From positions 239,417 through 303,416 of the forward strand of contig OY970290.1 in NCBI GenBank assembly GCA_963716205.1: DNA of 64,000 nt. Direction: 5' to 3'. Shown piece by piece: positions 7,505 through 36,819 of the stretch. The DNA comes from an uncultured bacterium (GTDB taxonomy: Bacteria; Patescibacteriota; Minisyncoccia; Phycocordibacterales; GWA1-40-21). The notes under the pieces were generated by a model that searched no databases, had not been told where the DNA came from, and was given only the letters and a program-made list of their open reading frames with translations. Within the stretch, counting starts at the first letter, position 1. The number at the start of each line of letters is the position of its first letter. The position numbers were made by a program, and so were the translations under genes.

Positions 7505-7580
7505 GGGCCGCTAGCTCACTTGGTAGAGCGCTTCCATGGCATGGAAGAGGTAACCGGTTCGATCCCGGTGCGGTCCACCA
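7505..7580 (+). tRNA. tRNA-Ala (anticodon GGC), CCA encoded
   Basis: Acceptor gggccgc/gcggtcc with G3:U70, anticodon loop atggcat, T-loop ttcgatc, and a 3' ACCA. Confidence 0.85.
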
Positions 7581-9066
7581 AAGCCGACGGATTGATCAAA
7601 TATTCCCGATAAACCTCATAAACTGGGCTTAGTTTTGCGGTTCCAAATTTCTCCCCAGAAAATATTATATTTCCATTAAATATCAAGTTTTGGAACCGTA
7701 GTCGCTTTTCAGGTCTTTCATTCAGTCTAAGCCAGGTTTCCGCTGTATTTCTAATGTAGTTAAAGCAGTACTCTAAAGCCTCATCCATATTTAAGCTCTC
7801 GATTTGCTTGTCGAATATTAAAGCTTCTTTCTGAACGATTTTCCGATTAGCAGAATCCTTTTGAGCCAGGAATTCTTCTTTCGTGTAGGTGCCAGATTCA
7901 AAGAGTTCATAAATGTTTTGTCTTCTAATCTCTAGTTCTCCGATTTCTTTTCGTATTTTCCCTTTTAGTTCATCGAATTGCTTGTAATTGTTTTTCCAGA
8001 TATCAACCACGATTGTTTTAAAAGCCTTTTCAAACTGAAACGTTGGATTGATCTCATGTAGATATTCGATGAATAATTGCTCAAACGATTCTTTAGGAAT
8101 GGATTTAGCATAATCGCACTTCTGTTTATGATGGTGATAGTAAGGATATCTGATACCTTTTCGCCCCGTAGAATAGCTGCCGGTAAATGATTGTTCACAG
8201 AATTTGCAGACCGCCAGCTTTCGAAGCGGGAAAGCCGGATTTTTTGCTAAATGTGGCGTGCTTTTGTGTTGTCTTCTTCCCGTTCCCTGGCAGGTGTTGA
8301 AAAGCTTCTCATCAATAATTGGTTCAAACTTTCCCTTTATATCAATGTCCCACACCCGGATAATTCCGCAATAAATTGGATTCTTGATAATCATCTCCAT
8401 GAGTTGTCGTGTAGGAGCGTAGCCATTTCGGGTAGAAAATCCTCGATCCTTCAAGTATTTGGCAAGTGACTTTAAAGTGTGATGGCCCTTAGCAAATTCC
8501 TCAAAAATAAGACGAATATACGGGACATATTTTGGGTCAGGGGTTAGGTTGGCACCCTGGGCCAGGCGATAGTAGCCGAGGGGGGCCGGCCATACCCAAA
8601 TGCCTTTCTTTAAACGCTCCCGCATTCCATTTACACATCTTTCAGTTCGGACGTTGTTATCAAATTCAGCGAATCCCGATAACATAACCTCCATCAGCTT
8701 TCCTGATGGCGTATCGTCTATTTTTTCGGAGACTGAACGAATTTCCGTTCCGTATCCCTGAAGTTTTTGTTTGGTAATCGCGTAATCAGTCTGATTGCGG
8801 GAAAACCGGTCAATCTTGTACACAATAAAGTATTTTATCGTGTTTTTCTTGTTCGAGCAAAAGGCTACTGCCTTTGTGAACTCGGTGCGATCCACAGTTT
8901 TGGCAGACTCTCCACGCTCAATAAATACCTCCGATACGGTTACTCCCTCCCGTACCGCATACTCTTTACACATCCGTTGCTGTGATTCAAGACTCGTACC
9001 ATCTACCTGTTCGAGTGAAGACACCCGACAATAGATTATTCCGTTTTTTGTTTCTCCATTTTGCAC
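7516..9066 (-). CDS. large serine recombinase (integrase), intact; 3' end embedded in tRNA-Ala(GGC)
   Basis: 516 aa with N-terminal IIYCRVSSLEQ (catalytic Ser), a recombinase domain, and a Cys-containing region. The last 21 codons are the antisense of the tRNA-Ala gene. Confidence 0.85.
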   Translation of the reverse strand: MQNGETKNGIIYCRVSSLEQVDGTSLESQQRMCKEYAVREGVTVSEVFIERGESAKTVDRTEFTKAVAFCSNKKNTIKYFIVYKIDRFSRNQTDYAITKQKLQGYGTEIRSVSEKIDDTPSGKLMEVMLSGFAEFDNNVRTERCVNGMRERLKKGIWVWPAPLGYYRLAQGANLTPDPKYVPYIRLIFEEFAKGHHTLKSLAKYLKDRGFSTRNGYAPTRQLMEMIIKNPIYCGIIRVWDIDIKGKFEPIIDEKLFNTCQGTGRRQHKSTPHLAKNPAFPLRKLAVCKFCEQSFTGSYSTGRKGIRYPYYHHHKQKCDYAKSIPKESFEQLFIEYLHEINPTFQFEKAFKTIVVDIWKNNYKQFDELKGKIRKEIGELEIRRQNIYELFESGTYTKEEFLAQKDSANRKIVQKEALIFDKQIESLNMDEALEYCFNYIRNTAETWLRLNERPEKRLRFQNLIFNGNIIFSGEKFGTAKLSPVYEVYREYLINPSALVDRTGIEPVTSSMPWKRSTK

Positions 9067-9263
9067 GGCGGTAATTTTTTCATATCACCATCTACTTGTC
9101 GAGGTACCAAAGGCGACATTTTGGAACCATTTTTCTCTTCTATAAAACAATCAAGCGCCAACTGAGCGTGGGTATAAATGAGATTCCTAATAACCTCCAC
9201 ATCCTCGTCGGGAGCATTTTTTAAAGTCGGCTCAATTTCTCTCATTTGTTCAATGCTAATCAT
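9036..9263 (-). CDS. hypothetical small protein overlapping the integrase start (possible directionality factor)
   Basis: 75-aa acidic ORF overlapping the integrase start by 31 nt. No motif is recognised. Confidence 0.3.
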   Translation of the reverse strand: MISIEQMREIEPTLKNAPDEDVEVIRNLIYTHAQLALDCFIEEKNGSKMSPLVPRQVDGDMKKLPPCKMEKQKTE

Positions 9264-9413
9264 GTTTTCATTTTGATCTTCCTGGAATATAGCGAAAGAC
9301 GGGGAATCTTTCCGTAATCAGCAGGTTGCCGATTTCGGCAACTTTCACCGTCTTCGCGGAATGATTGTCTTCTTTCACAATAGGTGGAGGTCGATTTTTA
9401 TTAAAATCAAAAC

Positions 9414-9731
9414 ATGTTTTATATGAGCACGTTTACAAAACCTTTAAAAAAGGGAAACCGGATTCGGATATGCCGGACGCTCGCGCGCTACACACAAGAG
9501 GAATTGTCATACCTCCTGGGCATTCCGACCACCACGCTTTCAAAATGGGAGAACAGGTCGCAGACTCCCTCGATCCATTATGCCATCGGTCTTTCGGTGG
9601 CACTCCACCGCTTGGTGGACGAAATCTTTTCGGATTATCGGAATGAGTGGGTGAAGATAATTAATCAAAGGGCGCAGATTCTTGAAAATAAAAAGTCGAA
9701 AAAAATTACGAACGATAACGATAAACGATAA
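9414..9731 (+). CDS. XRE-family helix-turn-helix transcriptional regulator
   Basis: The segment RTLARYTQEELSYLLGIPTTTLSKWENRSQTPS is a classic HTH_XRE. It is divergent from the integrase. Confidence 0.7.
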   Translation: MFYMSTFTKPLKKGNRIRICRTLARYTQEELSYLLGIPTTTLSKWENRSQTPSIHYAIGLSVALHRLVDEIFSDYRNEWVKIINQRAQILENKKSKKITNDNDKR

Positions 9732-9888
9732 CGAAAACGTTATGAAAAAAATAAACGTTATTGGCGGCGAATGGCGAACAGCATGGCACTGGGGATTTGC
9801 TATTTGAAAAGTAAGAAACCATGTAAAATATCGCTTTGATCCAGAGCATTCTTTCTATTTTACAAGCACTCAAAGGGAGGATATTTCA

Positions 9889-10107
9889 ATGGCAGTCACT
9901 CTCAAAAAAGAAGTCGTGGTTGATGAATGGTGGATGCTTGTCGAAGGAGCGGCAGACAAGGTTGAACAGGTTTTCAAGGATACCGAGGACAATATAAAAA
10001 AATCTAAGGCTCCCGACGTAACCTTTGAGCGGGTATCTATTCAGTCTCTATTGAACCCCCATGGGAACTCGTGGACGTGGGAGAAGATGAATTTCGGAAT
10101 TACATAG
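9889..10107 (+). CDS. hypothetical protein (possibly the N-terminal part of a frameshifted gene continuing at 10071)
   Basis: 72-aa ORF overlapping the next ORF by 37 nt in another frame. Confidence 0.35.
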   Translation: MAVTLKKEVVVDEWWMLVEGAADKVEQVFKDTEDNIKKSKAPDVTFERVSIQSLLNPHGNSWTWEKMNFGIT

Positions 10108-10880
10108 ACAAAATTCCTTTTGGCGGAAATTACCTTATTGAACGGAAAATCCTGGCTTCGCTTGGAGAGGAAAGACGAAAACAAATCACCAGTGAGATTG
10201 AGCAAAAACGAGAACAAAAGAAATTCACCAAGCCGCCGGAAGTCGAACATATTCCCAAACCTGCTGAAGAACCAAAGCAAGAACCGAAATATGAACCTGT
10301 CCGAGAAAAGACGGGAAAGAAAGAACGGGTATCAGACCTGCCTGTCGAGACTAGTCCGGCACAGACGGAAGAAAAAGGCACGTCACGCCATCAATATCTT
10401 CAAAGTCTCATTAAACGTATGGCCGAGGAAAAGGGATACAAAGCGACCGTCGAGGAATCAATTCCCGATGGTCGGGTTGATGTCGGTCTTCTAAAGAATG
10501 GGAAGAAAATTGCCTGTGAGATTTCCGTGACCAATGCCCCCGATAATGAATTAGGAAATATCGAAAAGTGTCTCAAGGCAGGATACGACAAAGTGCTCAT
10601 GTGTGCCCAGGACAAGAAACATTTGGAAAAGATACGGACCTTGGTTATGGAAAAGCTAACCGACTCCGCTCTTGAAAAAGTAATGTTTGTTGAACCCGAA
10701 GAACTTTTCTTTTATCTGGAAGAAGAAGCGGCCAAGGATTCAGGAAAGGAACAACGGGTTAAAGGCTATAAGGTAAAGGTGAATTACCAACCCTTAAACC
10801 AGGACGACAAGAAAAGGAAACGCGAGGCCGTGGCCCAGGTCATCCTCGGAGCTTTCAAAAGGTTGAAGGGGAAGGATTAG
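10071..10880 (+). CDS. hypothetical protein; C-terminal region weakly PD-(D/E)xK-like (GRVDVGLL...ACEIS)
   Basis: 269-aa ORF with a K/E/P-rich linker then a conserved-looking C-terminal domain. No firm assignment. Confidence 0.45.
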   Translation: MDVGEDEFRNYIDKIPFGGNYLIERKILASLGEERRKQITSEIEQKREQKKFTKPPEVEHIPKPAEEPKQEPKYEPVREKTGKKERVSDLPVETSPAQTEEKGTSRHQYLQSLIKRMAEEKGYKATVEESIPDGRVDVGLLKNGKKIACEISVTNAPDNELGNIEKCLKAGYDKVLMCAQDKKHLEKIRTLVMEKLTDSALEKVMFVEPEELFFYLEEEAAKDSGKEQRVKGYKVKVNYQPLNQDDKKRKREAVAQVILGAFKRLKGKD

Positions 10881-10965
10881 GATTTGGCCGTTTAAGACCT
10901 CGGCAGACTTTTTTAAAATAAAGTTGTGTTAAAATGAATTGCATAAAGATTAAAAGAAGAATCCA

Positions 10966-11568
10966 ATGAAAGATATAAAGTCAGAATCCATTTTAGTAAT
11001 GAAAATCGGCTACCATGGAGCCGAAGATATTGACACTATTATTGCGAGAAAAAAAGAAGAAGAAAAAAAATGCGGTCAAACCTATTGGGGTTATGGCGGG
11101 GTATTATGCCACCCAATCCGAGTTGTCCAAAATTTTGCATCGCAAGTCGGAACGAAAAAAATCAAAGTTCTTTTCAGTGTTACCAAATCCCCATTCCAAT
11201 CTGATCCGACGCGAGCAAAATATTTTTCCGAGGACGGAAAAACATGGTCACCATTACATGACAGCGCCAATGTTCTGGCATCAAAATTTGCAATAGTTCT
11301 TCGTTCTCTCAAAGCATGTAAAAAGACAATAGTTCTTAACGATTATTGTGTCCCAATAGGTCCTTCAAAGGGGCGTCCCCTTAACGAATATCTAAGATTT
11401 CGTGTTGATAAAGCGGTCGGAACATTATCGAACAAAAAGAACCTGGGTCCCCTTAAGAGTCTTCCGATCCAGTTTGAGGCTGATTTGGTCCCGCCTTACG
11501 CCATCTTGGTGAGTCACCAGCATCAACCTGAGTCCCATCATCCATCACAAATTTCCCTTCCTTATTGA
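10966..11568 (+). CDS. hypothetical protein
   Basis: 200-aa ORF whose 3' end overlaps the convergent recombinase fusion by 116 nt. Confidence 0.4.
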   Translation: MKDIKSESILVMKIGYHGAEDIDTIIARKKEEEKKCGQTYWGYGGVLCHPIRVVQNFASQVGTKKIKVLFSVTKSPFQSDPTRAKYFSEDGKTWSPLHDSANVLASKFAIVLRSLKACKKTIVLNDYCVPIGPSKGRPLNEYLRFRVDKAVGTLSNKKNLGPLKSLPIQFEADLVPPYAILVSHQHQPESHHPSQISLPY

Positions 11569-13984
11569 TATAAGCTGGAATTTTCCTGTCTTTGCTCCCA
11601 TAGAATTTAGGCATTGCATCATCTTTTATTTTTTGGCCCTCAAAAGGAGCCGGACAATTATAGACACGATCTAAAACAAGATTTGCCGACCGTAAACTAG
11701 GTCGGTCTTCGAGATGATATTGATGAATTTCACGAATCATTTCAGAAACTACATACCCGTGCTTGCATAAAAATTCTTGAATGTTCGCCATTGCTTCTCT
11801 ACTCCAATCTTCCTTATGAGCAAAAGGCAAAATAGCCATTCCCCAACTTGGAGCTGGTTTGCAAAATTCCATGCAACGTCCTAGAAATAGTTTCCCGCAT
11901 TCGCCCTTGTCAACTGATCCATAAGGAGGGTTCGTGTAGAACACTTCATGAGCGCCTTTATATTTTTCAGGGATTGGATCTCGAACATTGTAGCGATGAA
12001 CCGAAATAAGATCGGGAGGAAGGCGCAAGTCGTCGATTACTTGTTCAATAAATGCTAAAAGCCTTTCATCAAAATCGAAAATACGAATTTTGGCCGGTCC
12101 TTTGAAAACATCTCGATTAGCAAGATGCGCAATAACCAAACCCATACAATCGCCATCACCAACAAATGCAACGTCTCTGTATTTCAGATAATCAATTGCT
12201 AAAAGTGCCTGAGTTGCTTGGCTTCCGGGAAGCATAAAGACTTGATCTATTGAACGGATTGGACGTGGTCTATCTGGATGTTGCGTGACCTGTGCAACTA
12301 AATCCACAATAGCCGCATCAGGCCTCACCCCCAGGCTGAGAGCCACGTCTTTTTGCCACAGCCTCAGGTCAAGGCGGCGCTTTCGGATATGGTCCCCAAG
12401 GGTTGTTAGGCTCTTAGGGTAGGCAGGATTTTGTGGTTTTTTGGCCGATAATTGAAAGTTAATGAATGGCAACGCAGGAATGAGGTTGTGTTGCTTTTCA
12501 TTAGTCAATTCAGCGGTCGAGGGAATATAGGCGAGGGATATGGAAATATCATCCGAGCCTATAGTGATCCTATCGGTGATATTCTCGATGATCCGCCGTT
12601 TTTCTTCGAAAACCAGTTCTTTCCATTTGGAATAAAGGTCTTTGGCCTCGGATATGATCTCGTCACTTGAGAGGTATTTGATCTTGAGGAAGTCTATCTC
12701 TCCCTGAAGGTCCGGGAGCTGGGCCTTGACCTTCTCCAAGCGCTCTTCATTTTCCCGGAATTCGGTTCCAAAGGTCTTCACGCTGATCTCGTCGTTGTAA
12801 TAGGCTTTTTTTATCTTGTCCATTTGGCTTTCGATTTTGGCACGCTCTTTCTCAAGCCGCTCTAAGAGTTCCTGCTTTTCCTGAATGACCATATCGGCCC
12901 GTTCAAGGTGCTTGGAAATCTCAACCGGGGAAAAGAAGAAGTTTTTTAATTGTTCATGGAATATGGATTCAAGATCATCCGGGAGTATCTTGTTCCTGCA
13001 TTTGGCACAGGTATATTTCGACGCATTCGGCGGTATGGGCATCTTGCCCCCGCAGTGACAAAAGACGAAGCCGGTGAAAAGATGTGTTGGCCTTTTGGCG
13101 GGTTTCTTACGTTTCGATTCCTGTTCCCTTAAGATAGCGTTGCACTGATCCCACAATTCAGCAGAAACAATGGGCTCTACCTCGACATATTCCCATTCCG
13201 CTTTGGGCTTCATCACCCATGCTTTGCCGTCGCCCAGGCTCTTCGTGTAATTGAGCCGGTGCTTTCCTTTGGCCGTGGGGTCTTGGAGAAGACGGTCAAC
13301 AGTGGTATCGGAAAACTTTGAGCCTTTGCGCGTCCGATATCCCTTGTCATTGAGAATCCGGGCAACAGTTTTCTTGCGGTGATGTTCAAGGAAATATTCA
13401 AAGATGAGTTTTGCAATGGGAACCTCTTTGGGTTCAGGGATGAGTTGTTTGTCTTTCCAGCGATAACCGAAAGGAGCCTGACCGCCAAGGGGTTTGCCGA
13501 GCTTTGCCCGGATGGGGACAGAGGCGGCCACCCGCGAAGCGATTTCTTCCCGTTCCCATTGGGCCATGGCCGCGATCATGGTGTAGAAGAGACGACCAGC
13601 AGGGGTTGAAGTATCGATGGATTCTTGGAGGGAAATTAAATCGGCGTCACTCTCATTGAAGAGGTCGGCGAAATCTAAAAGCTCTCTAGTGTTTCGGGCA
13701 AGGCGAGCAAGTTTCGAGAAGATGAGTCCTGTGATATGGCCGGACTTAATATGCCCAAGCATCTTTTGAGCTTCCGGGTGGGCAATGACTGCTTTGCCGC
13801 TTACTGCCTCTAAGTGATAGACCTCTTTGACATTCCAACCCTTCGACTCTGCATAATACCGCGCCCGTTTCTCATGGTGTTCAGGGCTTTCCCCCCGCGC
13901 CTGATCTTCCGTTGAAACACGAATCCAAATACCGACGTTTTTCTTTCCTTGGTTTTTTTCCACGAGCGCACCTCCACAAATCAA
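11453..13984 (-). CDS. large serine recombinase fused to a C-terminal HTH plus DUF43/BpsA-like SAM-dependent transferase (methyltransferase-like) domain
   Basis: 843 aa with N-terminal IWIRVSTEDQ (catalytic Ser), a recombinase domain, a Cys cluster CHCGG..CAKC, and a coiled coil. After about residue 500 it continues with LGDHIRKRRLDLRLWQKDVALSLGV (HTH-like), VAFVGDGDCMGL (GDGD), and VFYTNPPYG (NPPY). Confidence 0.8.
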   Translation of the reverse strand: MICGGALVEKNQGKKNVGIWIRVSTEDQARGESPEHHEKRARYYAESKGWNVKEVYHLEAVSGKAVIAHPEAQKMLGHIKSGHITGLIFSKLARLARNTRELLDFADLFNESDADLISLQESIDTSTPAGRLFYTMIAAMAQWEREEIASRVAASVPIRAKLGKPLGGQAPFGYRWKDKQLIPEPKEVPIAKLIFEYFLEHHRKKTVARILNDKGYRTRKGSKFSDTTVDRLLQDPTAKGKHRLNYTKSLGDGKAWVMKPKAEWEYVEVEPIVSAELWDQCNAILREQESKRKKPAKRPTHLFTGFVFCHCGGKMPIPPNASKYTCAKCRNKILPDDLESIFHEQLKNFFFSPVEISKHLERADMVIQEKQELLERLEKERAKIESQMDKIKKAYYNDEISVKTFGTEFRENEERLEKVKAQLPDLQGEIDFLKIKYLSSDEIISEAKDLYSKWKELVFEEKRRIIENITDRITIGSDDISISLAYIPSTAELTNEKQHNLIPALPFINFQLSAKKPQNPAYPKSLTTLGDHIRKRRLDLRLWQKDVALSLGVRPDAAIVDLVAQVTQHPDRPRPIRSIDQVFMLPGSQATQALLAIDYLKYRDVAFVGDGDCMGLVIAHLANRDVFKGPAKIRIFDFDERLLAFIEQVIDDLRLPPDLISVHRYNVRDPIPEKYKGAHEVFYTNPPYGSVDKGECGKLFLGRCMEFCKPAPSWGMAILPFAHKEDWSREAMANIQEFLCKHGYVVSEMIREIHQYHLEDRPSLRSANLVLDRVYNCPAPFEGQKIKDDAMPKFYGSKDRKIPAYINKEGKFVMDDGTQVDAGDSPRWRKAGPNQPQTGSEDS

Positions 13985-14038
13985 TCAAACTTTTTGGTGA
14001 ATATGAATAGGATTAAATTGTATACGATTGTATACCTG

Positions 14039-14374
14039 CTAAGCCGTATCCTCAAGATCAAATATAGTATCGGCACTAAACGGTTTCGACGTATTTCCGT
14101 CGATCATCAGTTTGAGATATATGCCATACGCGGGAAGGTTCACGATATCACTTTGCCGGAAGACCGGCCAGAATTCATCAGAGAGCATCTTGGCATCTTC
14201 CGTTCCCACCCTAAACGAGATCATGGTTCCCACATTTCCCAAGATGGCCCTTCGAATATGTTCATCGACTTGATGAAGGTATTGGTTGACGAGGATCAGG
14301 TTCAAGCGGTATTTGCGCGCCTCTGAAAGAATATCTATAAACCCGGAAGTGGTGAAGCTTTGAAACTCGTCCAC
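14039..14374 (-). pseudogene. C-terminal fragment of a VirD4/TraG-type conjugative coupling protein
   Basis: Residues ...YVDEFQSF..EARKYRLNLILVNQYLHQV..AILGNVGTMISFRVGTEDAKMLSDEF match the C-terminal region of T4SS coupling ATPases (ILVNQ). The frame stays open upstream of the annotated Met, but no N-terminal ATPase or TM part is present. Confidence 0.5.
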
Positions 14375-14447
14375 ATAAAGATAGAAGTCCCGTCGTTTTT
14401 CTTCCGGTATCTATCATCCGCTCAAGGGAACATCCGCCGGAAATATC

Positions 14448-14879
14448 GTGGATACGCTCACCCAGTTCATCACCGGGAAAGGCTACAGCGTCCGCGTCGG
14501 CATGACCCCTTCTGAAGATATCTACGGCTATGTCAATGACAAGAAGGAGATCGTGCTCAAGGAGGGCGAGAGTTCCGACCATCAAGCTTTGGTTCTAGCT
14601 CATGAAATGTCGCACGCCCTTCTCGGTCATGTCGGTTCTTTCCAGAATCAAGCGGAGAAGGAACTTGAAGCCGAAACGTCTGCCTGGATCATTTGCCGCA
14701 ATCTCGGATTGCGGACTAATGAAACAAGTTTTGCTTACTTGGCAACATGGGCAAGCGGGCCGGAACAAGAAAAGAAGTTGGAAAAGGCCGCTTCTCGTGC
14801 CTGTCAGGTGGCGCAACTAATTTTGGAAGGTCTGGAAGCAATGAAGCAGATTTCCAGCCAGAAAGGAGAAATGGTATGA
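14448..14879 (+). CDS. HExxH metallopeptidase-like protein (ImmA/IrrE- or ArdC-C-terminal-like)
   Basis: LVLAHEMSHALLGH motif. GTG start. Its stop overlaps the next start (ATGA). Confidence 0.5.
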   Translation: MDTLTQFITGKGYSVRVGMTPSEDIYGYVNDKKEIVLKEGESSDHQALVLAHEMSHALLGHVGSFQNQAEKELEAETSAWIICRNLGLRTNETSFAYLATWASGPEQEKKLEKAASRACQVAQLILEGLEAMKQISSQKGEMV

Positions 14880-15145
14880 AAAAACTCGTCATCATCATCG
14901 ACGATGGAATGGTTGAGGACGTGCTCATCAGTTCCAAGGAACCGATGGACATTATGATCGTGGACTTTGACAAGAAGACCCTCGATCAATCGGCCTTGCA
15001 TGAACTGAGCGAACCGCACAACTTTGAAGACGTGGCCGCATTAGCCGATATCTACAAGTGGGATGCCTTCTACGATCCCAAACGGGTCAAGGAGGTCTTT
15101 GCAACACAAGAGCCGAAACACGCCTTTAATCCCAGCACTTCATAG
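14876..15145 (+). CDS. hypothetical protein
   Basis: 89-aa ORF with an SD (aggag) 9 nt upstream and translational coupling to the upstream gene. A strong terminator follows. Confidence 0.5.
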   Translation: MKKLVIIIDDGMVEDVLISSKEPMDIMIVDFDKKTLDQSALHELSEPHNFEDVAALADIYKWDAFYDPKRVKEVFATQEPKHAFNPSTS

Positions 15146-15164
15146 GAATTCCAATTCCTAGCAA

Positions 15165-15198
15165 AGCCCTATCGACAATCGATAGGGCTTTTTTTTTA
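15165..15198 (+). terminator. rho-independent terminator
   Basis: Hairpin agccctatcga-caa-tcgatagggct followed by ttttttttt. Confidence 0.8.
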
Positions 15199-15294
15199 CT
15201 TATCTCTGATTTTTTATTTTATAGAAATTCTGTTATAGTTAATCCGTAGTTGTGTCCGAGTTGGTTTGAAATCCCAAGTCAAGAAACTCCAAAT

Positions 15295-16317
15295 ATGAAA
15301 AATTATTTTTATTACAAAGATAAAAAAAAAGTCCTACCTGTTTTAGGTGAGGAAAAAAATAAACTGGCAAAAAAGAAACTCGACCACATTCTTAAGACCA
15401 AAAAGGAATTAATACCAGAACACTTTATCGAAAGGTGGTCAGAGGTGGCATTGTATAATCCTGGCGGTGATGTTGAAAAAGCAAATGCCATTTTGATCAA
15501 TCCGGAAGACGGCGCTTACGATCTATCGAACCCACTCAACGACATGACAGGAAAAGAATGGGTAAAGTTCAGTTGCAGTTGGTTTATTTTTAATGCTCTG
15601 CACAAAGACTTAAAGGAAGAGAGAGAAGTATCTCCAAATACTCAGGATCATCCAGCGACATTTTCTCCGACAATGATTGAGGGGTTTGTGAAATTCTTTA
15701 CAAAAAAGGGAGAAAACGTACTCGATCCTTTTTGCGGCATTGGAAGCACTATGGTTGCCTGCAAACGAACCGGAAGAGTCGGCTATGGTATTGAGCTTAA
15801 TAAAAAATATTATGATCTGTCGCTCAAGCGAACTCCGGAATTCAAAAAGACCATATTCAACGAAAATGCGGCCAATATCAAAAAACTGAATCTGCCAAAG
15901 ATTGCTTTTTCGATTTCATCGCCTCCGTACTGGGACATGCTTAACCGAAGTACCAAAGACTTCAAAAAGGATAGAACGAAAGACGGTTTCGATGTTAACT
16001 ATTCCGAAGCCGAAGAGGACTTGGGTAATATTGATAACTACGATCTGTTTTTGGAAAAATTAGCAAATATATATTTTGACATATTTGATCTACTCAAAGC
16101 CGGAGGGTATCTCGTGGTCATTGTGAAGAACCTTAAGAAAGAGGGTAAAATGTATCCATTGGCGTGGGACTTGGCTCGGCTTCTCTCGAAGAAGTATATG
16201 CTCAAAGATGAGAAGCTTTGGATACAAGACAAAGTCGGTCTTGCCCCCTACGGATACCCTTCAGCGTGGGCAAGCAACATACTGCATCATTACTGTTTAG
16301 TTTTTCAAAAGAAATAA
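15295..16317 (+). CDS. DNA methyltransferase (N4-cytosine/N6-adenine family, SPPY motif IV)
   Basis: Motif X/I HPATFSP..VLDPFCGIGST is followed by motif IV SISSPPYW. It overlaps or abuts the next MTase. Confidence 0.8.
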   Translation: MKNYFYYKDKKKVLPVLGEEKNKLAKKKLDHILKTKKELIPEHFIERWSEVALYNPGGDVEKANAILINPEDGAYDLSNPLNDMTGKEWVKFSCSWFIFNALHKDLKEEREVSPNTQDHPATFSPTMIEGFVKFFTKKGENVLDPFCGIGSTMVACKRTGRVGYGIELNKKYYDLSLKRTPEFKKTIFNENAANIKKLNLPKIAFSISSPPYWDMLNRSTKDFKKDRTKDGFDVNYSEAEEDLGNIDNYDLFLEKLANIYFDIFDLLKAGGYLVVIVKNLKKEGKMYPLAWDLARLLSKKYMLKDEKLWIQDKVGLAPYGYPSAWASNILHHYCLVFQKK

Positions 16318-16318
16318 C

Positions 16319-17947
16319 ATGTCTTTAACCATTTCACAAATTGTAAAAAACCTTGTCGATGTAAACGATATCAAACACGATCGGCAGTATTCGCGCGTGG
16401 CGAAACTTCATAAATATTGGTCAAGAAAACCTTGGTTTGTTATCGATCAATACATTGAGAAATATTCCAAAAAGGATCACGTCGTTTTGGACCCGTTTTG
16501 TGGTAGCGGAATTATTGGACTGCAATCAGTTTTAGCCAATAGAAATTTCATCGGTTACGACCTGAATCCTTTCGCTGTCTTTCTCGCAAAGAACTCTTTG
16601 CAGGTCGGTTATGACAACGCCTCTTTTGAAGAGGACTTCTCAGCGATTGAGCGGGCTGTTCGGGAGGAAATAATGCCTCTCTATGCGACCAAAGACAAAT
16701 ATATTCTGTATACCATTCTTGGAAAGAAAAATAGTAAGGACTATAACGCTGTCATCGCTGACAGTAATTTCCACAACAAGCAAAAAGTTAGTCTCTCTCA
16801 AGAATATCTAAATCCAATCATAAAATTTCCTAAGAACTTGAAGTATCCAGACAAGGACTTTCCAGAGAAATTTTATAAAGATCGTTTTTCTTATAAGGGT
16901 GTGAAGCGAGTGTCAGACATGTTCACCAAGAGGAACCTTCTTGCTTTGGCAACACTTCATATGGCTATCAACAAATTGCCTCTAAAAAACAGAGATTTGT
17001 TCATGCTTGCATTTACGAACACCCTATTGCATGTAAGTAAATTAAAAGCAGAAAATGTGCGGCCTCTTGGTGTAAATAACTTTTGGATTCCGGATGATTT
17101 TATTGAAGAGAATGTCTGGTGGAGGTTTGTAGACCGAGTCAATAATGTAAAAATGGCAAAGGAAGTTATTGCAGACAAGGCTTCCCGAAACGAGGTCTCG
17201 AAGCCTGTCTCTAAGATTTATAACAAGTCGTCTTTGAAGATGATTGAAATTAAGCCGGGTAGTGTTGACTATTTGATTACCGATCCTCCATACGGCGACA
17301 CCATCCAATACTCAGAGCTTTCATACATCTGGAATTGCTGGCTTGAGAAAGAGTTTGAGATTGAGAATGAAGTCATTATAAACCCTGTGCAAAAAAAGGG
17401 AGTGAACGAATACTACGATCAGCTCGCTACTTTTATCCGCGAAGCGAAAAGGGTTCTCAAAAAAGACGCTTACTTTACACTTGCATTCCACAACAAGGAT
17501 TTGAAAATTTGGATTAGCCTTGCCGAATTAATAAGAGATCATGGAATGGAATTGGTAGACATCTCTTCCTACGACACCTTCGGCAGTCCTTACAATAAAA
17601 ATTGGGCAAAATTTTCGCCCAAATCTGACTTCTATGTGACCTTTATAAATTCGAAAAATAAAGCAAGGGTTAAAAATAAAAAAGTTATCTATCCCAATGA
17701 TATTGCAGATGAGATCGTCAAATGCCTTGGCAAAAACAATGGCAAACTTTTTAATCTGAATAAGGCGTATGATCTGTTCGTAAGCGTAGTTATAAGTAAA
17801 ATATTTGATGGGTCGCAAGTCATTGAACACGAACGACTAAGTATTGAGAACATTATGAATCTTTTTCAGAACGTTCCACGAGATGAGAAGCATGGTAAGA
17901 AAAAGGAAACTGTTCAGATAAGTTTATTTGAACTACAACATGTTTAA
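16319..17947 (+). CDS. DNA methyltransferase (N6-adenine type, DPPY motif IV)
   Basis: N-terminal HKYWSRKP..VLDPFCGSGIIG (motif X/I) and LITDPPYGD (motif IV). 542 aa. Confidence 0.8.
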   Translation: MSLTISQIVKNLVDVNDIKHDRQYSRVAKLHKYWSRKPWFVIDQYIEKYSKKDHVVLDPFCGSGIIGLQSVLANRNFIGYDLNPFAVFLAKNSLQVGYDNASFEEDFSAIERAVREEIMPLYATKDKYILYTILGKKNSKDYNAVIADSNFHNKQKVSLSQEYLNPIIKFPKNLKYPDKDFPEKFYKDRFSYKGVKRVSDMFTKRNLLALATLHMAINKLPLKNRDLFMLAFTNTLLHVSKLKAENVRPLGVNNFWIPDDFIEENVWWRFVDRVNNVKMAKEVIADKASRNEVSKPVSKIYNKSSLKMIEIKPGSVDYLITDPPYGDTIQYSELSYIWNCWLEKEFEIENEVIINPVQKKGVNEYYDQLATFIREAKRVLKKDAYFTLAFHNKDLKIWISLAELIRDHGMELVDISSYDTFGSPYNKNWAKFSPKSDFYVTFINSKNKARVKNKKVIYPNDIADEIVKCLGKNNGKLFNLNKAYDLFVSVVISKIFDGSQVIEHERLSIENIMNLFQNVPRDEKHGKKKETVQISLFELQHV

Positions 17948-19034
17948 TCATATGGAAATATACAAAAAAGATTTTTTTAACATATTCAAAGCCAACTTTG
18001 ATTTCAAGATTGTTGAAACTGAAATGGGGCTGGCAGTCAAAATGCCCGCAAAGGAAGCTTTTATTTACAGCAGTATTACCGGTGCCGGGTACTTTGAAAA
18101 TCCAATCTATCCTTTTACCCCAAAAGGTCTGATGAAGCTTTTCTATAATGCATTCACCTATAAGTTCGTATCAGGTATTTTTGATAACGGTGTCCTCAAA
18201 AATACGCCGTACATTCTGTCGAAAGCAAAGAAGTATTTGTTTGAGGGCGATAAATATGTTGTCCCTATTGAATTTGAATCAGAAGAAAAATTGATCAATC
18301 TGCTCAAGGAAAAGTTTGATCATATTAAAAACCCAGAAAATTACATTATTCAGCGCATTGAGACAAGCAAGCAAGGCAACGGAATGGAACCATTCATGGA
18401 ATACCTTGCAGGCGAGTCTTTCCGACATCTTGGCTTCATTGTAGAGAATCAAATACCTCTTGCCCATGCAGTCGGCTCTCCGGATTTTGCTGGGTACGGT
18501 TTAAGTGACCTCATAATCAAGATAAGCGATTACGGATACCTATCAAGCGCCGGTTTTCACATGATTGAGTTGGCTCTCATTAGAAACTTTAAACAAGGGC
18601 CAAAGAACGAGAGTCACCATGTCACTCACGACTTTATTGTCGGTGAAGCAAAGACTGGGAGTCTGATCATGACCAAACAGTTGGAAAAATATCTCAATAC
18701 CGGACTATTTGATCAGGGATTTGAGATTCACCCTGCAAAGGCCAAGCCCTCAAAAGATTACTTCGGTTTGATCAGTTTGGATTCTGATTTCAAAATAAAA
18801 ATCACTCTCCCTGTAACTAAGCATACGGCGGAGAATCCGCTGTCACGGGAAGAGTATGCGATATGGCTTGGTAACTACATTAAGTTTTATCTAATTTCAA
18901 ATTTCACAAACGATGAGCTTAAGCAATTTTACATTGAACAGGAAGGTGAAGAGATAAATAAAGAGTCTGATCTTGTTAGTTTCGTCTTGGGGTTGGAGAC
19001 TGAAACAATTCTAGCAAAAATTAAATCCCTATAA
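17928..19034 (+). CDS. hypothetical protein, candidate PD-(D/E)xK nuclease (possible restriction component)
   Basis: 368 aa. E..SPDFAGYG...IVGEAKTG resembles the E/PD/ExK triad. It overlaps the MTase stop by 20 nt. Confidence 0.5.
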   Translation: MNYNMFNHMEIYKKDFFNIFKANFDFKIVETEMGLAVKMPAKEAFIYSSITGAGYFENPIYPFTPKGLMKLFYNAFTYKFVSGIFDNGVLKNTPYILSKAKKYLFEGDKYVVPIEFESEEKLINLLKEKFDHIKNPENYIIQRIETSKQGNGMEPFMEYLAGESFRHLGFIVENQIPLAHAVGSPDFAGYGLSDLIIKISDYGYLSSAGFHMIELALIRNFKQGPKNESHHVTHDFIVGEAKTGSLIMTKQLEKYLNTGLFDQGFEIHPAKAKPSKDYFGLISLDSDFKIKITLPVTKHTAENPLSREEYAIWLGNYIKFYLISNFTNDELKQFYIEQEGEEINKESDLVSFVLGLETETILAKIKSL

Positions 19035-19035
19035 T

Positions 19036-20049: not shown

Positions 20050-20072
20050 TTGTAAAGTTAGTACGAAATCCT

Positions 20073-23881: not shown

Positions 23882-23892
23882 AACATAATGAT

Positions 23893-31073: not shown

Positions 31074-31928
31074 ATGTTTACAAATTATCAAAAAATAAGC
31101 AGAGCCATAGGCAATTTTACAATAGTTGTCCTTTTAGCTGTTGCATCACTCAGTTTTGCTTCAGTAGCCCATGCGGACTACTTTGCAACAACAACATTGA
31201 CCTCAACAAGTTCAATGAATTTCTTTACAGTTCCTGCTGGAGTTACCAGTATTAATGCGACTCTTACTGCAGGCGGTGGCGGTGGCGGTGGCGGAGCATA
31301 CTCGTTTGGAGGTGGCGGTGGCGGAGCAGGAGGAGTATATTCTGTAGAAGCGATTCCAGTTATTCCTGGACAAATAATCGCATATACAGTTGGAGCAGGT
31401 GGTGTTGGTGGCACTAGTGGCTTTATAAATGTTGCAGGTGGAAATGGTGCTGATGGAGGAAATACCGTTTTGACTCTTGGAGCATCAGGTATTATGGAAA
31501 TTGGTGGAAAAGGAGGAATGGGAGCTATCTACGGAAATTCAAATAGTGGAAAAGGTGGACTCGCAGGCGGTCTTGGTGGAACAAATGGTACTAACGGTGA
31601 TGACCAGATAAATACTCAAAGAAATTACGGAGGCACTGGTGGTTCAACACCAAACGGTCTTGCCGGAATCGGAGGATATGGTGATGCTAATACATACAGA
31701 CTTCCAACAACTGGAACAAATGGTGCTGGAGGCGGAGCAGGAAGCGGATGGGCTTCTGGTGATGGCGTCTATCGTGATGCTGGTGCAAATGGCGGAGATG
31801 GTTCAATAGTACTTAGTTATTTTGCCGATCTTACTGCCTCCTGTTATTACCATTACTGGTTCAAGCACTCTTACACTTCAAGCAAGTTCAACTGGTGTTT
31901 ATGTAGATGCCGGAGCAACTGCACTTGA
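31074..31928 (+). CDS. glycine-rich N-terminal segment (signal peptide plus GGxGG repeats), probably the N-terminal part of the giant surface protein separated by a frameshift near 31820
   Basis: Signal peptide MFTNYQKISRAIGNFTIVVLLAVASLSFASVAHA then a Gly-rich domain. The frame ends in nonsense (..CYYHYWFKHS..) while the +1 frame continues as the adhesin. Confidence 0.5.
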   Translation: MFTNYQKISRAIGNFTIVVLLAVASLSFASVAHADYFATTTLTSTSSMNFFTVPAGVTSINATLTAGGGGGGGGAYSFGGGGGGAGGVYSVEAIPVIPGQIIAYTVGAGGVGGTSGFINVAGGNGADGGNTVLTLGASGIMEIGGKGGMGAIYGNSNSGKGGLAGGLGGTNGTNGDDQINTQRNYGGTGGSTPNGLAGIGGYGDANTYRLPTTGTNGAGGGAGSGWASGDGVYRDAGANGGDGSIVLSYFADLTASCYYHYWFKHSYTSSKFNWCLCRCRSNCT

Positions 31929-34900
31929 TAATGTTGATGGAGTGGTGCCGGTAACAACAACTTTTAATAATGTAAATCTTGCGGCAACAGGAACCTATTC
32001 TGTTGTCTATTCTGCTACCGATGCGGCTGGAAATACAGCTACAACTTCACGAACGGTGATTGTCATTGATACGACAGCGCCAGTTATAACTTTTGTTCCG
32101 GGCACGCAAGTTTTTGAAGCGACAGGCGCAACAACAACTCCAATATTAGCACCAATTATAGCTACGGATGCCTTTGGTCCAAGCCCGGTTATTACCTATT
32201 CACCCATTAGTTTTGGTCTCGGAACCACAACAGTCACTTGGACAGCAACTGATCCAAATACTGGAAATACTGTTATCGCCACATCCAGCGTTGTTATAAA
32301 GGACACAACTGCACCAGTAATTGTCCTTAACGGAACAAATCCGATGAATGTCCTTTATGGGTCTGTATTTATAGACCCAGGAGCGACAGCTTATGACCTT
32401 GTAGATGGAACAACTACAGTTACAACGACTTTTGATAATGTAAATACTGCAGCAACAGGAACATATTCTGTTGTTTATTCTGCTGTCGATTTGTCAGGAA
32501 ATGCAACAAGTTCAACACGAATTGTGAATGTTCTTGCAACTGCACCAGTTCTTACAACACTTTCTATTTCACCATTAAATTTAACAACAACAGTCGGCAC
32601 CACAACACAGTTTGTGGCTACAGCACTTGATCAATACGGAAATCCAATTGCAGCTTCCGTTTTCTGGGGACCATCAAATCCTTCTGTTGGAACAATCGGT
32701 TTCAATACAGGCTTGTTTAATGCAGTTTCAGTTGGAACAACGACAATCACGGCAATCAGCGGAGCATTTAATGCTACTACAACAGTCACCGTTGTTCCCC
32801 TTGTTGCCACGTCTTCACCTTCAGCGGTGACAATTACCAATTCAACATTAGGCGGAACATTTTTTGCTTCTTATATTCCAACACTTGCTGAAACTACAGT
32901 TGCACCAATTGGAACGACAACTGGCACTACGACAATTACAAATTCTACATTGTCTGGATCATGGAACGTAAATAATTCAACACTTACAACAACTACGCTC
33001 GGCACTTCAACATTGGATAATGTAATTTCTACAAATTCTGTCATTACAAATTCCAATGCTACAAATTGTACAATTCTTAATTCATCTATCGATGGTTATT
33101 TACTTTCAAATTGCTATGTTGCGAACTCAACCTTTGATCCTGGAGCAATTGTAAATTCAACCACGACAAGCGTATCAGGATCAGATGCATTTATATACGA
33201 TTCAACAGTTAGTAATTCAACCGTTTCAACATCAACTATCCATGGATCAACTATAGCTGATTCAATAGTTACGTTTAGCTCCGTTGCCACATCTACGATT
33301 ACGAATAATTCAAATGTTGCAAGTTCAACAATAATTTTGTCAAATATTGATAATTCGCAAGTTACGAATTCAACGATTACCAATAGCACGATAATTCTTG
33401 GTTCAGTGATTTCATCTTCAACATTGACCAATGTCACTGCTGCAAGTTCAACAATCACGAATACAACTTTGTCTGATGCGACAACTACAAATGCAGTCAT
33501 TGATAGCGGTACTATATATAGTGGAACAATTACGATTGGCGGAAATACATTTACTGTTACTGAACCAACCTTGCTTTCAGATTTGATTGAACCGACAATA
33601 ACTTCTGTTACGCCAAATTCTGGCTCAATTAATGGAGGAACAAATATTATTATTGATGGAACTAACTTTGCATCAAGTACAGCAACCGTTGGCGGAGTTT
33701 TGGCAACAAATATTATTGTTGCAAGCAGCACAGAAATTACAGCAACAACTCCAGCTGGAGCAGCGGGTGCAGCTGATGTCGTTGTTACAAACACTAATGA
33801 TGGAGGCATTGCCACTTCAACTGGAGGATTTATGTATACATCAGGCGGAGGATCGGGAAGTTCAACCAGTTCCGATGACACCTTGAGCAACTTGACGGTC
33901 TCAGCCGGAACGCTCGCACCAGCTTTTGCCGCAGGAACACTTTCATATACTGACACATTGCCAGCAGGAACCGTTATCATTCCGACAGTCACGGCGACGA
34001 CAAATGATGCAAACGCAACCGACACAATTACTCAAGCATCCGCTTTGCCGGGATCAGCAACCATTGCAGTCACGGCACAAGATGGAACGACCACACAAAC
34101 ATATACCGTTGCTTTCACGGTATCAGGCGGAGGATCGGGAAGTTCAACCAGTTCCGATGACACCTTGAGCAACTTGACGGTCTCAGCCGGAACGCTCGCA
34201 CCAGCTTTTGCCGCAGGAACACTTTCATATACTGACACATTGCCAGCAGGAACCGTTATCATTCCGACAGTCACGGCGACGACAAATGATGCAAACGCAA
34301 CCGACACAATTACTCAAGCATCCGCTTTGCCGGGATCAGCAACCATTGCAGTCACGGCACAAGATGGAACGACCACACAAACATATACCGTTGCTTTCAC
34401 GGTATCAGGCGGAGGATCGGGAAGTTCAACCAGTTCCGATGACACCTTGAGCAACTTGACGGTCTCAGCCGGAACGCTCGCACCAGCTTTTGCCGCAGGA
34501 ACACTTTCATATACTGACACATTGCCAGCAGGAACCGTTATCATTCCGACAGTCACGGCGACGACAAATGATGCAAACGCAACCGACACAATTACTCAAG
34601 CATCCGCTTTGCCGGGATCAGCAACCATTGCAGTCACGGCACAAGATGGAACGACCACACAAACATATACCGTTGCTTTCACGGTATCAGGCGGAGGATC
34701 GGGAAGTTCAACCAGTTCCGATGACACCTTGAGCAACTTGACGGTCTCAGCCGGAACGCTCGCACCAGCTTTTGCCGCAGGAACACTTTCATATACTGAC
34801 ACATTGCCAGCAGGAACCGTTATCATTCCGACAGTCACGGCGACGACAAATGATGCAAACGCAACCGACACAATTACTCAAGCATCCGCTTTGCCGGGAT

Positions 34901-36819
34901 CAGCAACCATTGCAGTCACGGCACAAGATGGAACGACCACACAAACATATACCGTTGCTTTCACGGTATCAGGCGGAGGATCGGGAAGTTCAACCAGTTC
35001 CGATGACACCTTGAGCAACTTGACGGTCTCAGCCGGAACGCTCGCACCAGCTTTTGCCGCAGGAACACTTTCATATACTGACACATTGCCAGCAGGAACC
35101 GTTATCATTCCGACAGTCACGGCGACGACAAATGATGCAAACGCAACCGACACAATTACTCAAGCATCCGCTTTGCCGGGATCAGCAACCATTGCAGTCA
35201 CGGCACAAGATGGAACGACCACACAAACATATACCGTTGCTTTCACGGTATCAGGCGGAGGATCGGGAAGTTCAACCAGTTCCGATGACACCTTGAGCAA
35301 CTTGACGGTCTCAGCCGGAACGCTCGCACCAGCTTTTGCCGCAGGAACACTTTCATATACTGACACATTGCCAGCAGGAACCGTTATCATTCCGACAGTC
35401 ACGGCGACGACAAATGATGCAAACGCAACCGACACAATTACTCAAGCATCCGCTTTGCCGGGATCAGCAACCATTGCAGTCACGGCACAAGATGGAACGA
35501 CCACACAAACATATACCGTTGCTTTCACGGTATCAGGCGGAGGATCGGGAAGTTCAACCAGTTCCGATGACACCTTGAGCAACTTGACGGTCTCAGCCGG
35601 AACGCTCGCACCAGCTTTTGCCGCAGGAACACTTTCATATACTGACACATTGCCAGCAGGAACCGTTATCATTCCGACAGTCACGGCGACGACAAATGAT
35701 GCAAACGCAACCGACACAATTACTCAAGCATCCGCTTTGCCGGGATCAGCAACCATTGCAGTCACGGCACAAGATGGAACGACCACACAAACATATACCG
35801 TTGCTTTCACGGTATCAGGCGGAGGATCGGGAAGTTCAACTCCGGTCACGTCGATTAATATTGTTCCGGCAAATCCGACAATCGCACCAGGAGCCACTCA
35901 AACATTTACTTTGACTGATCAGAATAATAATCCGCTTTCAACGACAACCGCATGGTCAAGTTCAGATGCAACAATCGGCACAATTGATCCGGCGAGCGGA
36001 TTGTTCAATGCAATTGCAGTCGGACAAACAACAATTACTGCTACAGTTGATGCATTAACTGCAACAACGGTAGTGACAGTTTCTACAAGCACACCGGTAA
36101 CTCCGCCAGCTCCAGTAAGTTCGGGAGGGGGAGGCGCAACGCAGCATACTCCACCAACAATTGTAATTCTTGGCGATAATCCAGTTTCAATTGTTGCCGA
36201 TTCAGCATACACGGATGCTGGAGCAAAAGCATACGATGCCAATGACAATACAATCACTCAAAATATTATTGTCTCAAACAACGTCAACACTGCGGTCGCA
36301 GGATCATATACAGTAAAATATACTGTTACAGATAGTCATGACAATACAACAACGGCAACACGAACGGTGAATGTTACGCCAGCACCAGCAGCAGTTGCAA
36401 CGACAAGCACAGCTACAACCGGAGGAACAAATGTTACCGCTTCAACTTCTTCAACATCAGTTTCAACAAATACAGCAACAGTTCCTGCTACGACAACTAT
36501 AACCTTGACACAAACACCGGTGGTAACAACCGGAGGAAATGGAGTTACTTCAAACAATACTGGTACCAATAGTATTCCGTTTGTTGATCTTGGAAATACA
36601 CTTCCGGTGAAAACAGTTGCGACAACTTCCGTTTCAACGACGACAAGCCCTGCAACATCAAGCGTTGCCGAAACGGTTTCAACTACAACTGCGACAAATC
36701 TCTTGGCGACAGTAGCTCTCGCATTCTCAAGTATTTCGAAAAATTTGATTGCGATTATCCTTTCTATCATCGTTCTCATATTTGCAGTGTTTGCGGTCTA
36801 TAAAGTTCAGAGAGATTAA
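31822..36819 (+). CDS. giant cell-surface adhesin-like protein
   Basis: Domains visible in the translation: DUF5011 Ig-like domains (PVITF..GATA.D.VDG..TYSVVYSA.D..GN), Big_2 (ISPLNLTTTVGTTTQFVATALD), an N-S-T-rich repeat region, IPT/TIG (PTITSVTPNSGSINGGTNIIIDGTNF), seven identical 94-aa cadherin-like beta-sandwich repeats (LSNLTVSAGTLAPAFAAGTLSYT...), Big_2, DUF5011, and a Thr-rich stalk. It ends in a C-terminal TM anchor IAIILSIIVLIFAVFAVYKVQRD. Confidence 0.8.
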   Translation: MPILLPPVITITGSSTLTLQASSTGVYVDAGATALDNVDGVVPVTTTFNNVNLAATGTYSVVYSATDAAGNTATTSRTVIVIDTTAPVITFVPGTQVFEATGATTTPILAPIIATDAFGPSPVITYSPISFGLGTTTVTWTATDPNTGNTVIATSSVVIKDTTAPVIVLNGTNPMNVLYGSVFIDPGATAYDLVDGTTTVTTTFDNVNTAATGTYSVVYSAVDLSGNATSSTRIVNVLATAPVLTTLSISPLNLTTTVGTTTQFVATALDQYGNPIAASVFWGPSNPSVGTIGFNTGLFNAVSVGTTTITAISGAFNATTTVTVVPLVATSSPSAVTITNSTLGGTFFASYIPTLAETTVAPIGTTTGTTTITNSTLSGSWNVNNSTLTTTTLGTSTLDNVISTNSVITNSNATNCTILNSSIDGYLLSNCYVANSTFDPGAIVNSTTTSVSGSDAFIYDSTVSNSTVSTSTIHGSTIADSIVTFSSVATSTITNNSNVASSTIILSNIDNSQVTNSTITNSTIILGSVISSSTLTNVTAASSTITNTTLSDATTTNAVIDSGTIYSGTITIGGNTFTVTEPTLLSDLIEPTITSVTPNSGSINGGTNIIIDGTNFASSTATVGGVLATNIIVASSTEITATTPAGAAGAADVVVTNTNDGGIATSTGGFMYTSGGGSGSSTSSDDTLSNLTVSAGTLAPAFAAGTLSYTDTLPAGTVIIPTVTATTNDANATDTITQASALPGSATIAVTAQDGTTTQTYTVAFTVSGGGSGSSTSSDDTLSNLTVSAGTLAPAFAAGTLSYTDTLPAGTVIIPTVTATTNDANATDTITQASALPGSATIAVTAQDGTTTQTYTVAFTVSGGGSGSSTSSDDTLSNLTVSAGTLAPAFAAGTLSYTDTLPAGTVIIPTVTATTNDANATDTITQASALPGSATIAVTAQDGTTTQTYTVAFTVSGGGSGSSTSSDDTLSNLTVSAGTLAPAFAAGTLSYTDTLPAGTVIIPTVTATTNDANATDTITQASALPGSATIAVTAQDGTTTQTYTVAFTVSGGGSGSSTSSDDTLSNLTVSAGTLAPAFAAGTLSYTDTLPAGTVIIPTVTATTNDANATDTITQASALPGSATIAVTAQDGTTTQTYTVAFTVSGGGSGSSTSSDDTLSNLTVSAGTLAPAFAAGTLSYTDTLPAGTVIIPTVTATTNDANATDTITQASALPGSATIAVTAQDGTTTQTYTVAFTVSGGGSGSSTSSDDTLSNLTVSAGTLAPAFAAGTLSYTDTLPAGTVIIPTVTATTNDANATDTITQASALPGSATIAVTAQDGTTTQTYTVAFTVSGGGSGSSTPVTSINIVPANPTIAPGATQTFTLTDQNNNPLSTTTAWSSSDATIGTIDPASGLFNAIAVGQTTITATVDALTATTVVTVSTSTPVTPPAPVSSGGGGATQHTPPTIVILGDNPVSIVADSAYTDAGAKAYDANDNTITQNIIVSNNVNTAVAGSYTVKYTVTDSHDNTTTATRTVNVTPAPAAVATTSTATTGGTNVTASTSSTSVSTNTATVPATTTITLTQTPVVTTGGNGVTSNNTGTNSIPFVDLGNTLPVKTVATTSVSTTTSPATSSVAETVSTTTATNLLATVALAFSSISKNLIAIILSIIVLIFAVFAVYKVQRD
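33841..35839 (+). repeat. seven perfect tandem copies of a 282-bp unit (plus 25 nt of an eighth) inside the adhesin gene
   Basis: Unit starts at 33841, 34123, 34405, 34687, 34969, 35251, and 35533. The eighth begins at 35815 and diverges after gaagttcaac. The copies appear 100% identical. Confidence 0.95.

Follow-up and report, generated by a model that had tools for sequence, protein, structure and literature searches.

Large serine recombinases such as phiC31, Bxb1, A118 Int, CcrB and XisF share a Resolvase domain with a catalytic serine, a Recombinase domain, a four-cysteine zinc ribbon and a coiled coil, and the attP of large serine integrases has inverted arms around a 2-nt core. Temperate mycobacteriophages described by Broussard et al. 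2013 reportedly carry attP inside the repressor gene, with integration-dependent truncation of that gene. Among insertion targets, comM is a known hotspot at which AbaR and other islands insert (PMC11472951). Here we describe an 843-aa open reading frame (ORF) in a 64,000-nt stretch of an uncultured member of the Patescibacteriota (contig OY970290.1, positions 239,417 to 303,416; hereafter the window), in which a large serine recombinase (LSR) runs through a fragment of a tandem helix-turn-helix (HTH) gene into a transferase domain related to the polyamine synthase BpsA. The ORF is very probably a young, one-off accidental in-frame fusion and not a new architecture. The recombinase in it belongs to a family that integrates into comM and carries its attP inside the ORF, an arrangement more interesting than the fusion itself.

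The recombinase part has the domains and the four cysteines of the known proteins listed above, and its attP likewise consists of inverted arms around a 2-nt core. Unlike in large serine integrases, attP lies within the ORF of this family, so that the C-terminus depends on the integration state, and in the window the HTH tail has been swapped after 51 codons for an unrelated enzyme. As in the mycobacteriophage systems, the att site is located in coding sequence, and integration would give a regulatory or recombination protein a different C-terminus; those phages use tyrosine integrases that cut a repressor, whereas here it is the ORF of a serine recombinase that would gain or lose a tandem-HTH protein. 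The target comM is shared with the AbaR islands and is here split between ...AAMNP and CPCGY..., but AbaR inserts by Tn7-like transposition and this family apparently by an LSR. The ORF and its parts are arranged as follows.

11453..13984, minus strand: chimeric ORF, 843 aa from TTG (ORF call; same product on Logan contig L001)
13505..13930, minus strand: serine-recombinase catalytic domain, residues 19-160, with catalytic Ser24 in RVSTEDQ (PF00239; invariant columns of alignment A1)
13124..13432, minus strand: Recombinase domain, residues 185-287 (PF07508)
12992..13063, minus strand: zinc ribbon with C309, C311, C326 and C329, followed by a coiled-coil region, residues ~340-470 (alignment A1)
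12468..12495, no strand: intact attP core GCAACACA-ACCTCATTCC-TGCGTTGC with 8-bp inverted arms and a putative CA crossover at 12481-12482 (homology ends of loci L002 and L009)
12326..12481, minus strand: 5' third of the element's tandem-HTH gene, residues 502-553 (A1 against the 640-aa relatives; 91% DNA identity to L009 down to 12342)
12327..12342, no strand: rearrangement junction (CTG GGG GTG / AGG CCT GAT) with a possible 2-nt 'TG' microhomology (blastn end points; codon comparison with L003, L004, L006 and L008)
11456..12325, minus strand: BpsA_C-like S-adenosylmethionine (SAM)-dependent transferase, residues 554-843, with GDGD at 12149-12160 and NPPY at 11921-11932 (Pfam, alignments, PDB and fold matches)

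The frame was found exactly where a sequence-only reading of the window had placed it, on the minus strand with a TTG start, as were the strings quoted there: ITIGSDDISISLAYIP, which ends at P488, VAFVGDGDCMGL, with GDGD at residues 609-612, and VFYTNPPYG, with NPPY at residues 685-688. The true start is likely the GTG at residue 8 (nt 13963), because GGAGG lies ~7 nt upstream of it and homologs begin at the same point; the product would then be 836 aa. A Pfam scan of the ORF returned Resolvase (PF00239, residues 19-160, E 2.5e-29), Recombinase (PF07508, residues 185-287, E 2.1e-20) and BpsA_C (PF01861, formerly DUF43, residues 571-765, E 1.8e-24, well over the gathering score), all three far beyond chance. 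The Pfam domains and alignment A1 confirmed that the N-terminal ~500 aa are a complete LSR, and the protein as a whole is a three-piece mosaic of an LSR (residues 1-501), a fragment of the tandem-HTH gene (502-553) and a transferase gene (554-843).

No stop separates the recombinase from the transferase, as had been read from the letters, and the frame is equally open in an independently assembled Logan contig. This contig, built with a different assembler from run ERR11563597, has the identical junction and encodes the identical 843-aa product; over 16.46 kb it differs from the window by 0 mismatches and 2 indels, both outside the ORF. The fusion could be an assembly or sequencing artefact, either a chimeric join or a stop or frameshift missed near 12330 between two genes: the data derive from a metagenome, both assemblies may share the same reads, and they do differ by those indels elsewhere. 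However, two assemblers arrived at the same junction, which is not at a repeat (we found no direct or inverted repeats there able to explain an assembly chimera), and a missed stop would leave the loss of the transferase's first 10 codons and of two-thirds of the HTH-HTH gene unexplained. We regard an artefact as very doubtful.

The short segment between the two enzymes had been called HTH-like, which is true of its origin: it is the start of an XRE-type HTH, but only the first ~26 of ~55 residues are present. The break falls directly after ...LGV and before the ...T..NWE helix (A1), and the fragment has neither the recognition helix nor the second HTH. Within the 843-aa protein we observed only a weak HTH match to TIGR03070 (residues 528-553, E 0.078), whereas Pfam HTH_3 (PF01381), detected in intact relatives, was not detected. 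Half an HTH presumably cannot bind DNA.

At the junction, 51 codons beyond attP and halfway through the first HTH, the sequence switches to codon 11 of the transferase gene, which is always free-standing elsewhere. The window reads CTG GGG GTG followed by AGG CCT GAT GCG GCT; the corresponding codons are CTA GGA GTC, GAC AAA ATG in the HTH parent type and TAC CTG, AAG CCT GAC CCG GCG in stand-alone transferase genes, which further 5' have ATG TTC GGC GAA GAA CTC CGG AAG and a Shine-Dalgarno site. The blastn homologies end at 12342 and 12327, leaving a microhomology of at most 'TG'. Could the serine recombinase itself have made this junction, through a pseudo-att site? It looks active and has an attP nearby, but that attP (12468-12495) is intact and ~140 nt from the junction, inspection by eye found no GCAACRCA/TGCGTTGC arms in 12300-12350, and one and the same CA of the palindrome is the crossover point throughout the family. 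Because of this distance and the lack of att-like arms, we hold it extremely improbable that the recombinase made the join.

The other side of the junction is cut just as irregularly. The window transferase lacks its own ATG, the Shine-Dalgarno site and the first 10 conserved codons of a ~290-aa gene: relatives begin MFGEELRRYLKPDPA.VDLVAQVTQHPDRPRP (MFGEELRRYLKPDPA.VDLVAQ), and the window sequence picks up at R554-PDAAIVDLVAQ (A2). The start-like codons that lie in frame around the join, at residues 547, 553, 560 and 584, all lack a Shine-Dalgarno-like motif. Since its own start and ribosome-binding site are lost, the transferase could apparently be translated only as a C-terminal passenger on the recombinase.

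We searched for other proteins with this combination from both ends. Queried with the full ORF, a set of 5.8 billion proteins gave 5455 recombinase matches, and PF01861 occurred in 0 of the best 120. Residues 556-843 found 96 relatives in the same set, with identities of up to 77% over 95-99% of the query, all with PF01861 only and all of 340 aa or less; a HMMER pass over 1.84 billion cluster representatives yielded 443 matches, the longest among the best 150 being 494 aa. No protein of recombinase-fusion length was present among the 96 relatives or the best 150 of the 443 representatives. The orthologous fusions whose search had been proposed were thus absent from these three sets of matches, and the recombinase-transferase combination is a singleton in every database view searched.

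The DNA around the ORF belongs to an integrative/conjugative-type element, of which these further parts were recognized.

10071..10880, plus strand: orf269, a backbone gene of the recombinase's element family (tblastn)
10966..11568, plus strand: 200-aa partner gene of an uncharacterised family, convergent and overlapping with the BpsA-like gene (homologs in L004, L006 and L008)
14063..14410, minus strand: 3' remnant (~350 nt) of a TraG/TrwB-type coupling-protein gene (blastn to L002 and L003; PF12696 on a 111-aa ORF)
14448..14879, plus strand: C-terminal (metallopeptidase) half of an ArdC-like gene (blastn to the ArdC of L003; Peptidase_M78 and MPTase-PolyVal matches)

Homologs of orf269 are found in 10 other loci. 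In the 9 examined, the homolog keeps its orientation relative to the HTH-HTH gene and follows it at a distance of 1.5-5.3 kb, but the intervening genes differ. The interval from the HTH-HTH gene to orf269 is a variable cargo slot, which in the window holds the BpsA-like module, and the 5' edge of this module has eaten into the HTH gene. Because orf269 is present beyond the fusion, the element continues past it. Ahead of the recombinase, L002 and L003 have intact coupling proteins of 361 and 392 aa; in the window the TraG/TrwB remnant adjoins the ArdC half at a second deletion junction (14410-14544). The RadC-type and other genes that separate the coupling protein from ArdC in L003 are absent, and the N-terminal half of ArdC is deleted too. 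The element is thus eroded, with a deletion scar on the other side of the recombinase.

Because the combination is a singleton, both partners are cut off their domain boundaries and the element is eroded, we favor an accidental origin for the fusion. Within a degraded element of the integrative/conjugative type, a non-site-specific (illegitimate) deletion or a swap of cargo would have joined the complete recombinase and the first third of the HTH-HTH gene to a start-less BpsA-like gene, and the join would have been in frame by chance (roughly 1 in 3). The sequence-only reading had proposed an undescribed architecture that might couple integration to DNA modification. The combination is indeed unseen elsewhere, but the same three observations speak against an architecture with a coupled function, and the comparisons made here do not appear to support a coupling of recombination with transferase chemistry. 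Taken by itself, the fusion is an ordinary case of genome decay, and the recombinase belongs to the known LSR kind.

Several points weigh against an accident. Every family-invariant residue of the recombinase (A1), every subfamily-invariant residue of the transferase (A6) and all invariant residues of the partner (A5) are kept in the window copies, and the coding sequences show no decay; this fits a recent event and equally a fusion that is tolerated or useful. The reading frame stays open through the join. The fusion is known from a single example, and clustered databases may conceal fusions under shorter representatives; the 843-aa protein is itself filed under the 502-aa protein P0001. A degenerate scan of JGI metagenomes for the junction gave 0 matches but was insensitive, as its positive control returned only 2 stand-alone genes. 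No locus showed the presumed parent, in which the HTH-HTH gene and the BpsA-like gene after it would both be intact, and the deletion is one that we infer.

These points bear on the alternative that the ORF encodes a selected bifunctional protein, in which the recombinase would bring the transferase to DNA sites, or the integration state would regulate the transferase, coupling integration to modification or self-protection. Such a protein would account for an open frame with both catalytic parts complete in their invariant residues. The LSR family naturally tolerates a C-terminal extension, as in its ~640-aa forms, and a transferase without a start of its own is expressible only as a fusion. 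Set against this, the protein is alone among billions, the junction cuts the HTH short of its recognition helix and costs the transferase a conserved N-terminal stretch, adjacent genes of the element are truncated, and the usual partner is still a separate convergent gene, which suggests that the module was simply captured. We consider a selected bifunctional protein very unlikely. The recombinase core should nevertheless fold and act on attP, as residues 1-501 correspond to the complete 500-aa integrated form. That the ORF yields an expressed functional chimera, in which an integration-switched DNA-binding tail has been replaced by an NPPY-type SAM-dependent transferase, is distinctly improbable; if true, the recombinase would bring an activity that modifies bases or proteins to its own att site or to its synaptic partners.

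The recombinase of the fusion belongs to a family whose members come in two lengths. The best 120 of the 5455 matches fall into classes of ~500 aa and ~640 aa, with their identities to the window protein intermingled. The shorter class is the recombinase alone (P0001, 91% identical); the longer, ~41 of the 120, has the recombinase and two XRE-type HTH domains (P0002, 79% identical). In A1, both classes are collinear up to residue ~501 (...QRN-F/L) and then diverge: the 500-aa class terminates R(D/G)SW.P..*, and the 640-aa class continues IPALPFC...LGDH.RKRRLDL...LGV.E.T..NWE... and on into the second HTH. The window protein tracks the 640-aa class only as far as ...VALSLGV553 before departing into RPDAAIVDLVAQVTQHPDRPRP. 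Both S24 of RVSTEDQ and the four cysteines C309, C311, C326 and C329 are invariant in the 12 aligned sequences; the zinc-ribbon model PF13408 had no match in the 843-aa protein, but precomputed matches exist for several homologs. The closest relatives come from metagenome-assembled genomes labelled FCPU426 and Patescibacteria. The best NCBIfam matches, CcrB and XisF, were both far under their equivalog cut-offs, and PHROG 95, annotated 'integrase', matched at 2e-107.

Comparison of loci indicated where these two lengths come from. Homology of the window DNA to the attR-type locus L002 stops at 12481, and homology to the attL-type locus L009 (91% identity) starts at 12482, at the CA on which the palindrome 12468-12495 is centred; a blind terminator scan also found this palindrome. 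In L002, the locus of P0001, the recombinase adjoins a comM/yifB-type gene (Lon_C, ChlI, Mg_chelatase) that converges on it and lacks its 3' end; the product of this gene ends ...FMLAAAMNP* precisely at the end of the recombinase. The HTH-HTH tail (A4), scanned against GTDB species genomes, gave 337 matches, nearly all starting at tail residue 1-3, and 79 loci were retrieved, 70 without a recombinase upstream and 5 fused. In 53 of the 70 split loci, the HTH-HTH gene adjoins a comM 3' part that is encoded on the other strand and begins ...CPCGYYTDPSKECTC...ISGPLLDRIDLH (CPCGY...). In 26 of the 70, a conserved TTG at tail codon 4 is the first in-frame start.

Based on L002 and the 53 comM-adjoining loci, the recombinase lies at one end of the integrated element and the HTH-HTH gene at the other, with comM split between AAMNP and CPCGY. 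The attP (window and L003), attR (L002) and attL (the 53 loci) sequences converge on the CA core with comM as attB. The LSR family thus integrates into comM, and its attP lies inside the ORF. In the attP arrangement the ORF runs on into the tandem-XRE-HTH gene to give ~640 aa, and after integration it stops 8 codons into antisense comM at ~500 aa. The 640-aa proteins therefore represent the attP configuration, unintegrated or passenger, of the same elements, and the window has this arrangement. We had also considered that the 640-aa proteins were integration fusions with a host XRE gene; we rejected this, as the host flank is comM in those 53 split loci and the HTH-HTH gene is element-side. 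Many attP-configured copies sit on long contigs, and in the window and L003 they are inside composite islands that hold another serine recombinase. Neither a comM fragment nor a second copy of the missing HTH part was found in the window. A shallow literature search on comM with serine recombinases and on DUF43/BpsA_C returned nothing describing the recombinase family or the gene pair considered below.

The second LSR of the window (7516..9066, minus strand, 516 aa, with a zinc-ribbon domain) also has an ORF that crosses an att site, its last ~21 codons being antisense to tRNA-Ala(ggc) at 7505-7580. The Logan contig spans window positions 7522-23985, suggesting an island of ~16.5 kb bounded by tRNA-Ala(ggc) and a repeat. 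Between 15250 and 22451 the island has two N6_N4-type DNA methyltransferases, two ORFs without family matches and a 792-aa AAA_13/SMC-like ATPase; PADLOC matches in this interval include PDC-S06, mad2, mad3 and mad8, making it a candidate methylation-associated defence cluster.

We also compared the transferase part with its relatives. The sequence-only reading had assigned it GDDD and (D/N)PPY signatures; the PF01861 catalytic C-domain fold and NPPY were upheld, but the first motif reads GDGD. The match to solved BpsA is limited to the catalytic C-domain (E 1e-10, chain residues ~144-316 of ~374), with PDB matches beginning at chain residue ~127-144, and stand-alone relatives of ~285-330 aa have only ~25 residues ahead of the domain. 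Thus, unlike BpsA, an N4-bis(aminopropyl)spermidine synthase (PDB 5XNC, 6J27), the whole subfamily lacks the ~130-aa N-terminal domain and has GDGD for GDDD and NPPY for TDP(V/P)E. G54, D55 and D57 of GDGD are invariant and G56 nearly so (A6), and in the alignment to 6J27 the loop reads 'vgdgdcmgl' versus 'lgdddltgl'; with GDGD in place of GDDD, this is therefore not a BpsA-type catalytic motif. Where BpsA has TDP(V/P)E the window has NPPYG, a (D/N/S)PP(Y/F/W) motif IV on a class-I SAM fold, in which N130, P131 and P132 are invariant and Y133 nearly so (A6).

Fold neighbours of the domain include METTL5 and PH1948. Unlike these m6A RNA enzymes and the N6-adenine DNA methyltransferases, the window transferase has no sequence-level family match: no Pfam, NCBIfam or PADLOC model of a curated methyltransferase family scored above chance, and no target-recognition domain was identified. 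The only trace was a type II adenine methyltransferase model at E 0.21, which is chance level. With the BpsA fold but without two BpsA-defining features, the protein looks more like an amino-methyltransferase.

Outside the fusion, the transferase recurs with a partner. In three unrelated sequenced loci, and in a fourth listed without DNA, the stand-alone gene is followed by a convergent ORF of ~200-265 aa, usually overlapping (L004 8001-9408, L006 3094-4737 and L008 8001-9663, against 10966-12325 in the window). None of these convergent ORFs has a Pfam match, but they are homologous to each other (A3) and belong to a family of at least 78 members, likewise without any Pfam domain. The partner has an AF2 model of pLDDT 92 and weak YTH/EVE/McrB-N-like fold matches only, and PADLOC and PHROGs returned no match for the BpsA-like protein, the partner or orf269. 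Neighbours of the stand-alone pairs include Replic_Relax, NACHT, a type I restriction-modification system and RadC. The two genes thus form a conserved module in mobile and defence contexts, whereas BpsA belongs to polyamine pathways. The fold matches offer only a hint that the pair might act as 'writer plus reader'.

Two further features lie elsewhere in the window. Seven tandem repeats of 282 nt, 100% identical, occupy 33840-35831 inside a 1665-aa ORF (31822..36819), where the local GC content is ~0.51 against ~0.41 elsewhere. Repeats of a tRNA 3' end plus downstream sequence (73-85% identity) are located at 1297-1387, 22494-22753, 23891-24150 and 25323-25388, near tRNA-Ala(tgc) and upstream of tRNA-Ala(cgc)/tRNA-Pro, and flank two ORFs of ~340 aa in a stretch of low GC content (0.32-0.36). 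They look as if small integrated elements had accumulated in tandem at tRNA genes.

As a new architecture the fusion would matter little; it is best taken as a snapshot of accidental gene fusion in decaying mobile elements, and it counsels caution in reading function into singleton fusions. The conserved pair of a BpsA-fold, NPPY-type transferase and an uncharacterised partner could matter more than the fusion, and so could the widespread LSR family, which yields a new integrase set with well-defined attP and attB sequences. As a comM-targeting family that is fused to a tandem-HTH protein only when unintegrated, it could also carry a built-in sensor of its integration state.

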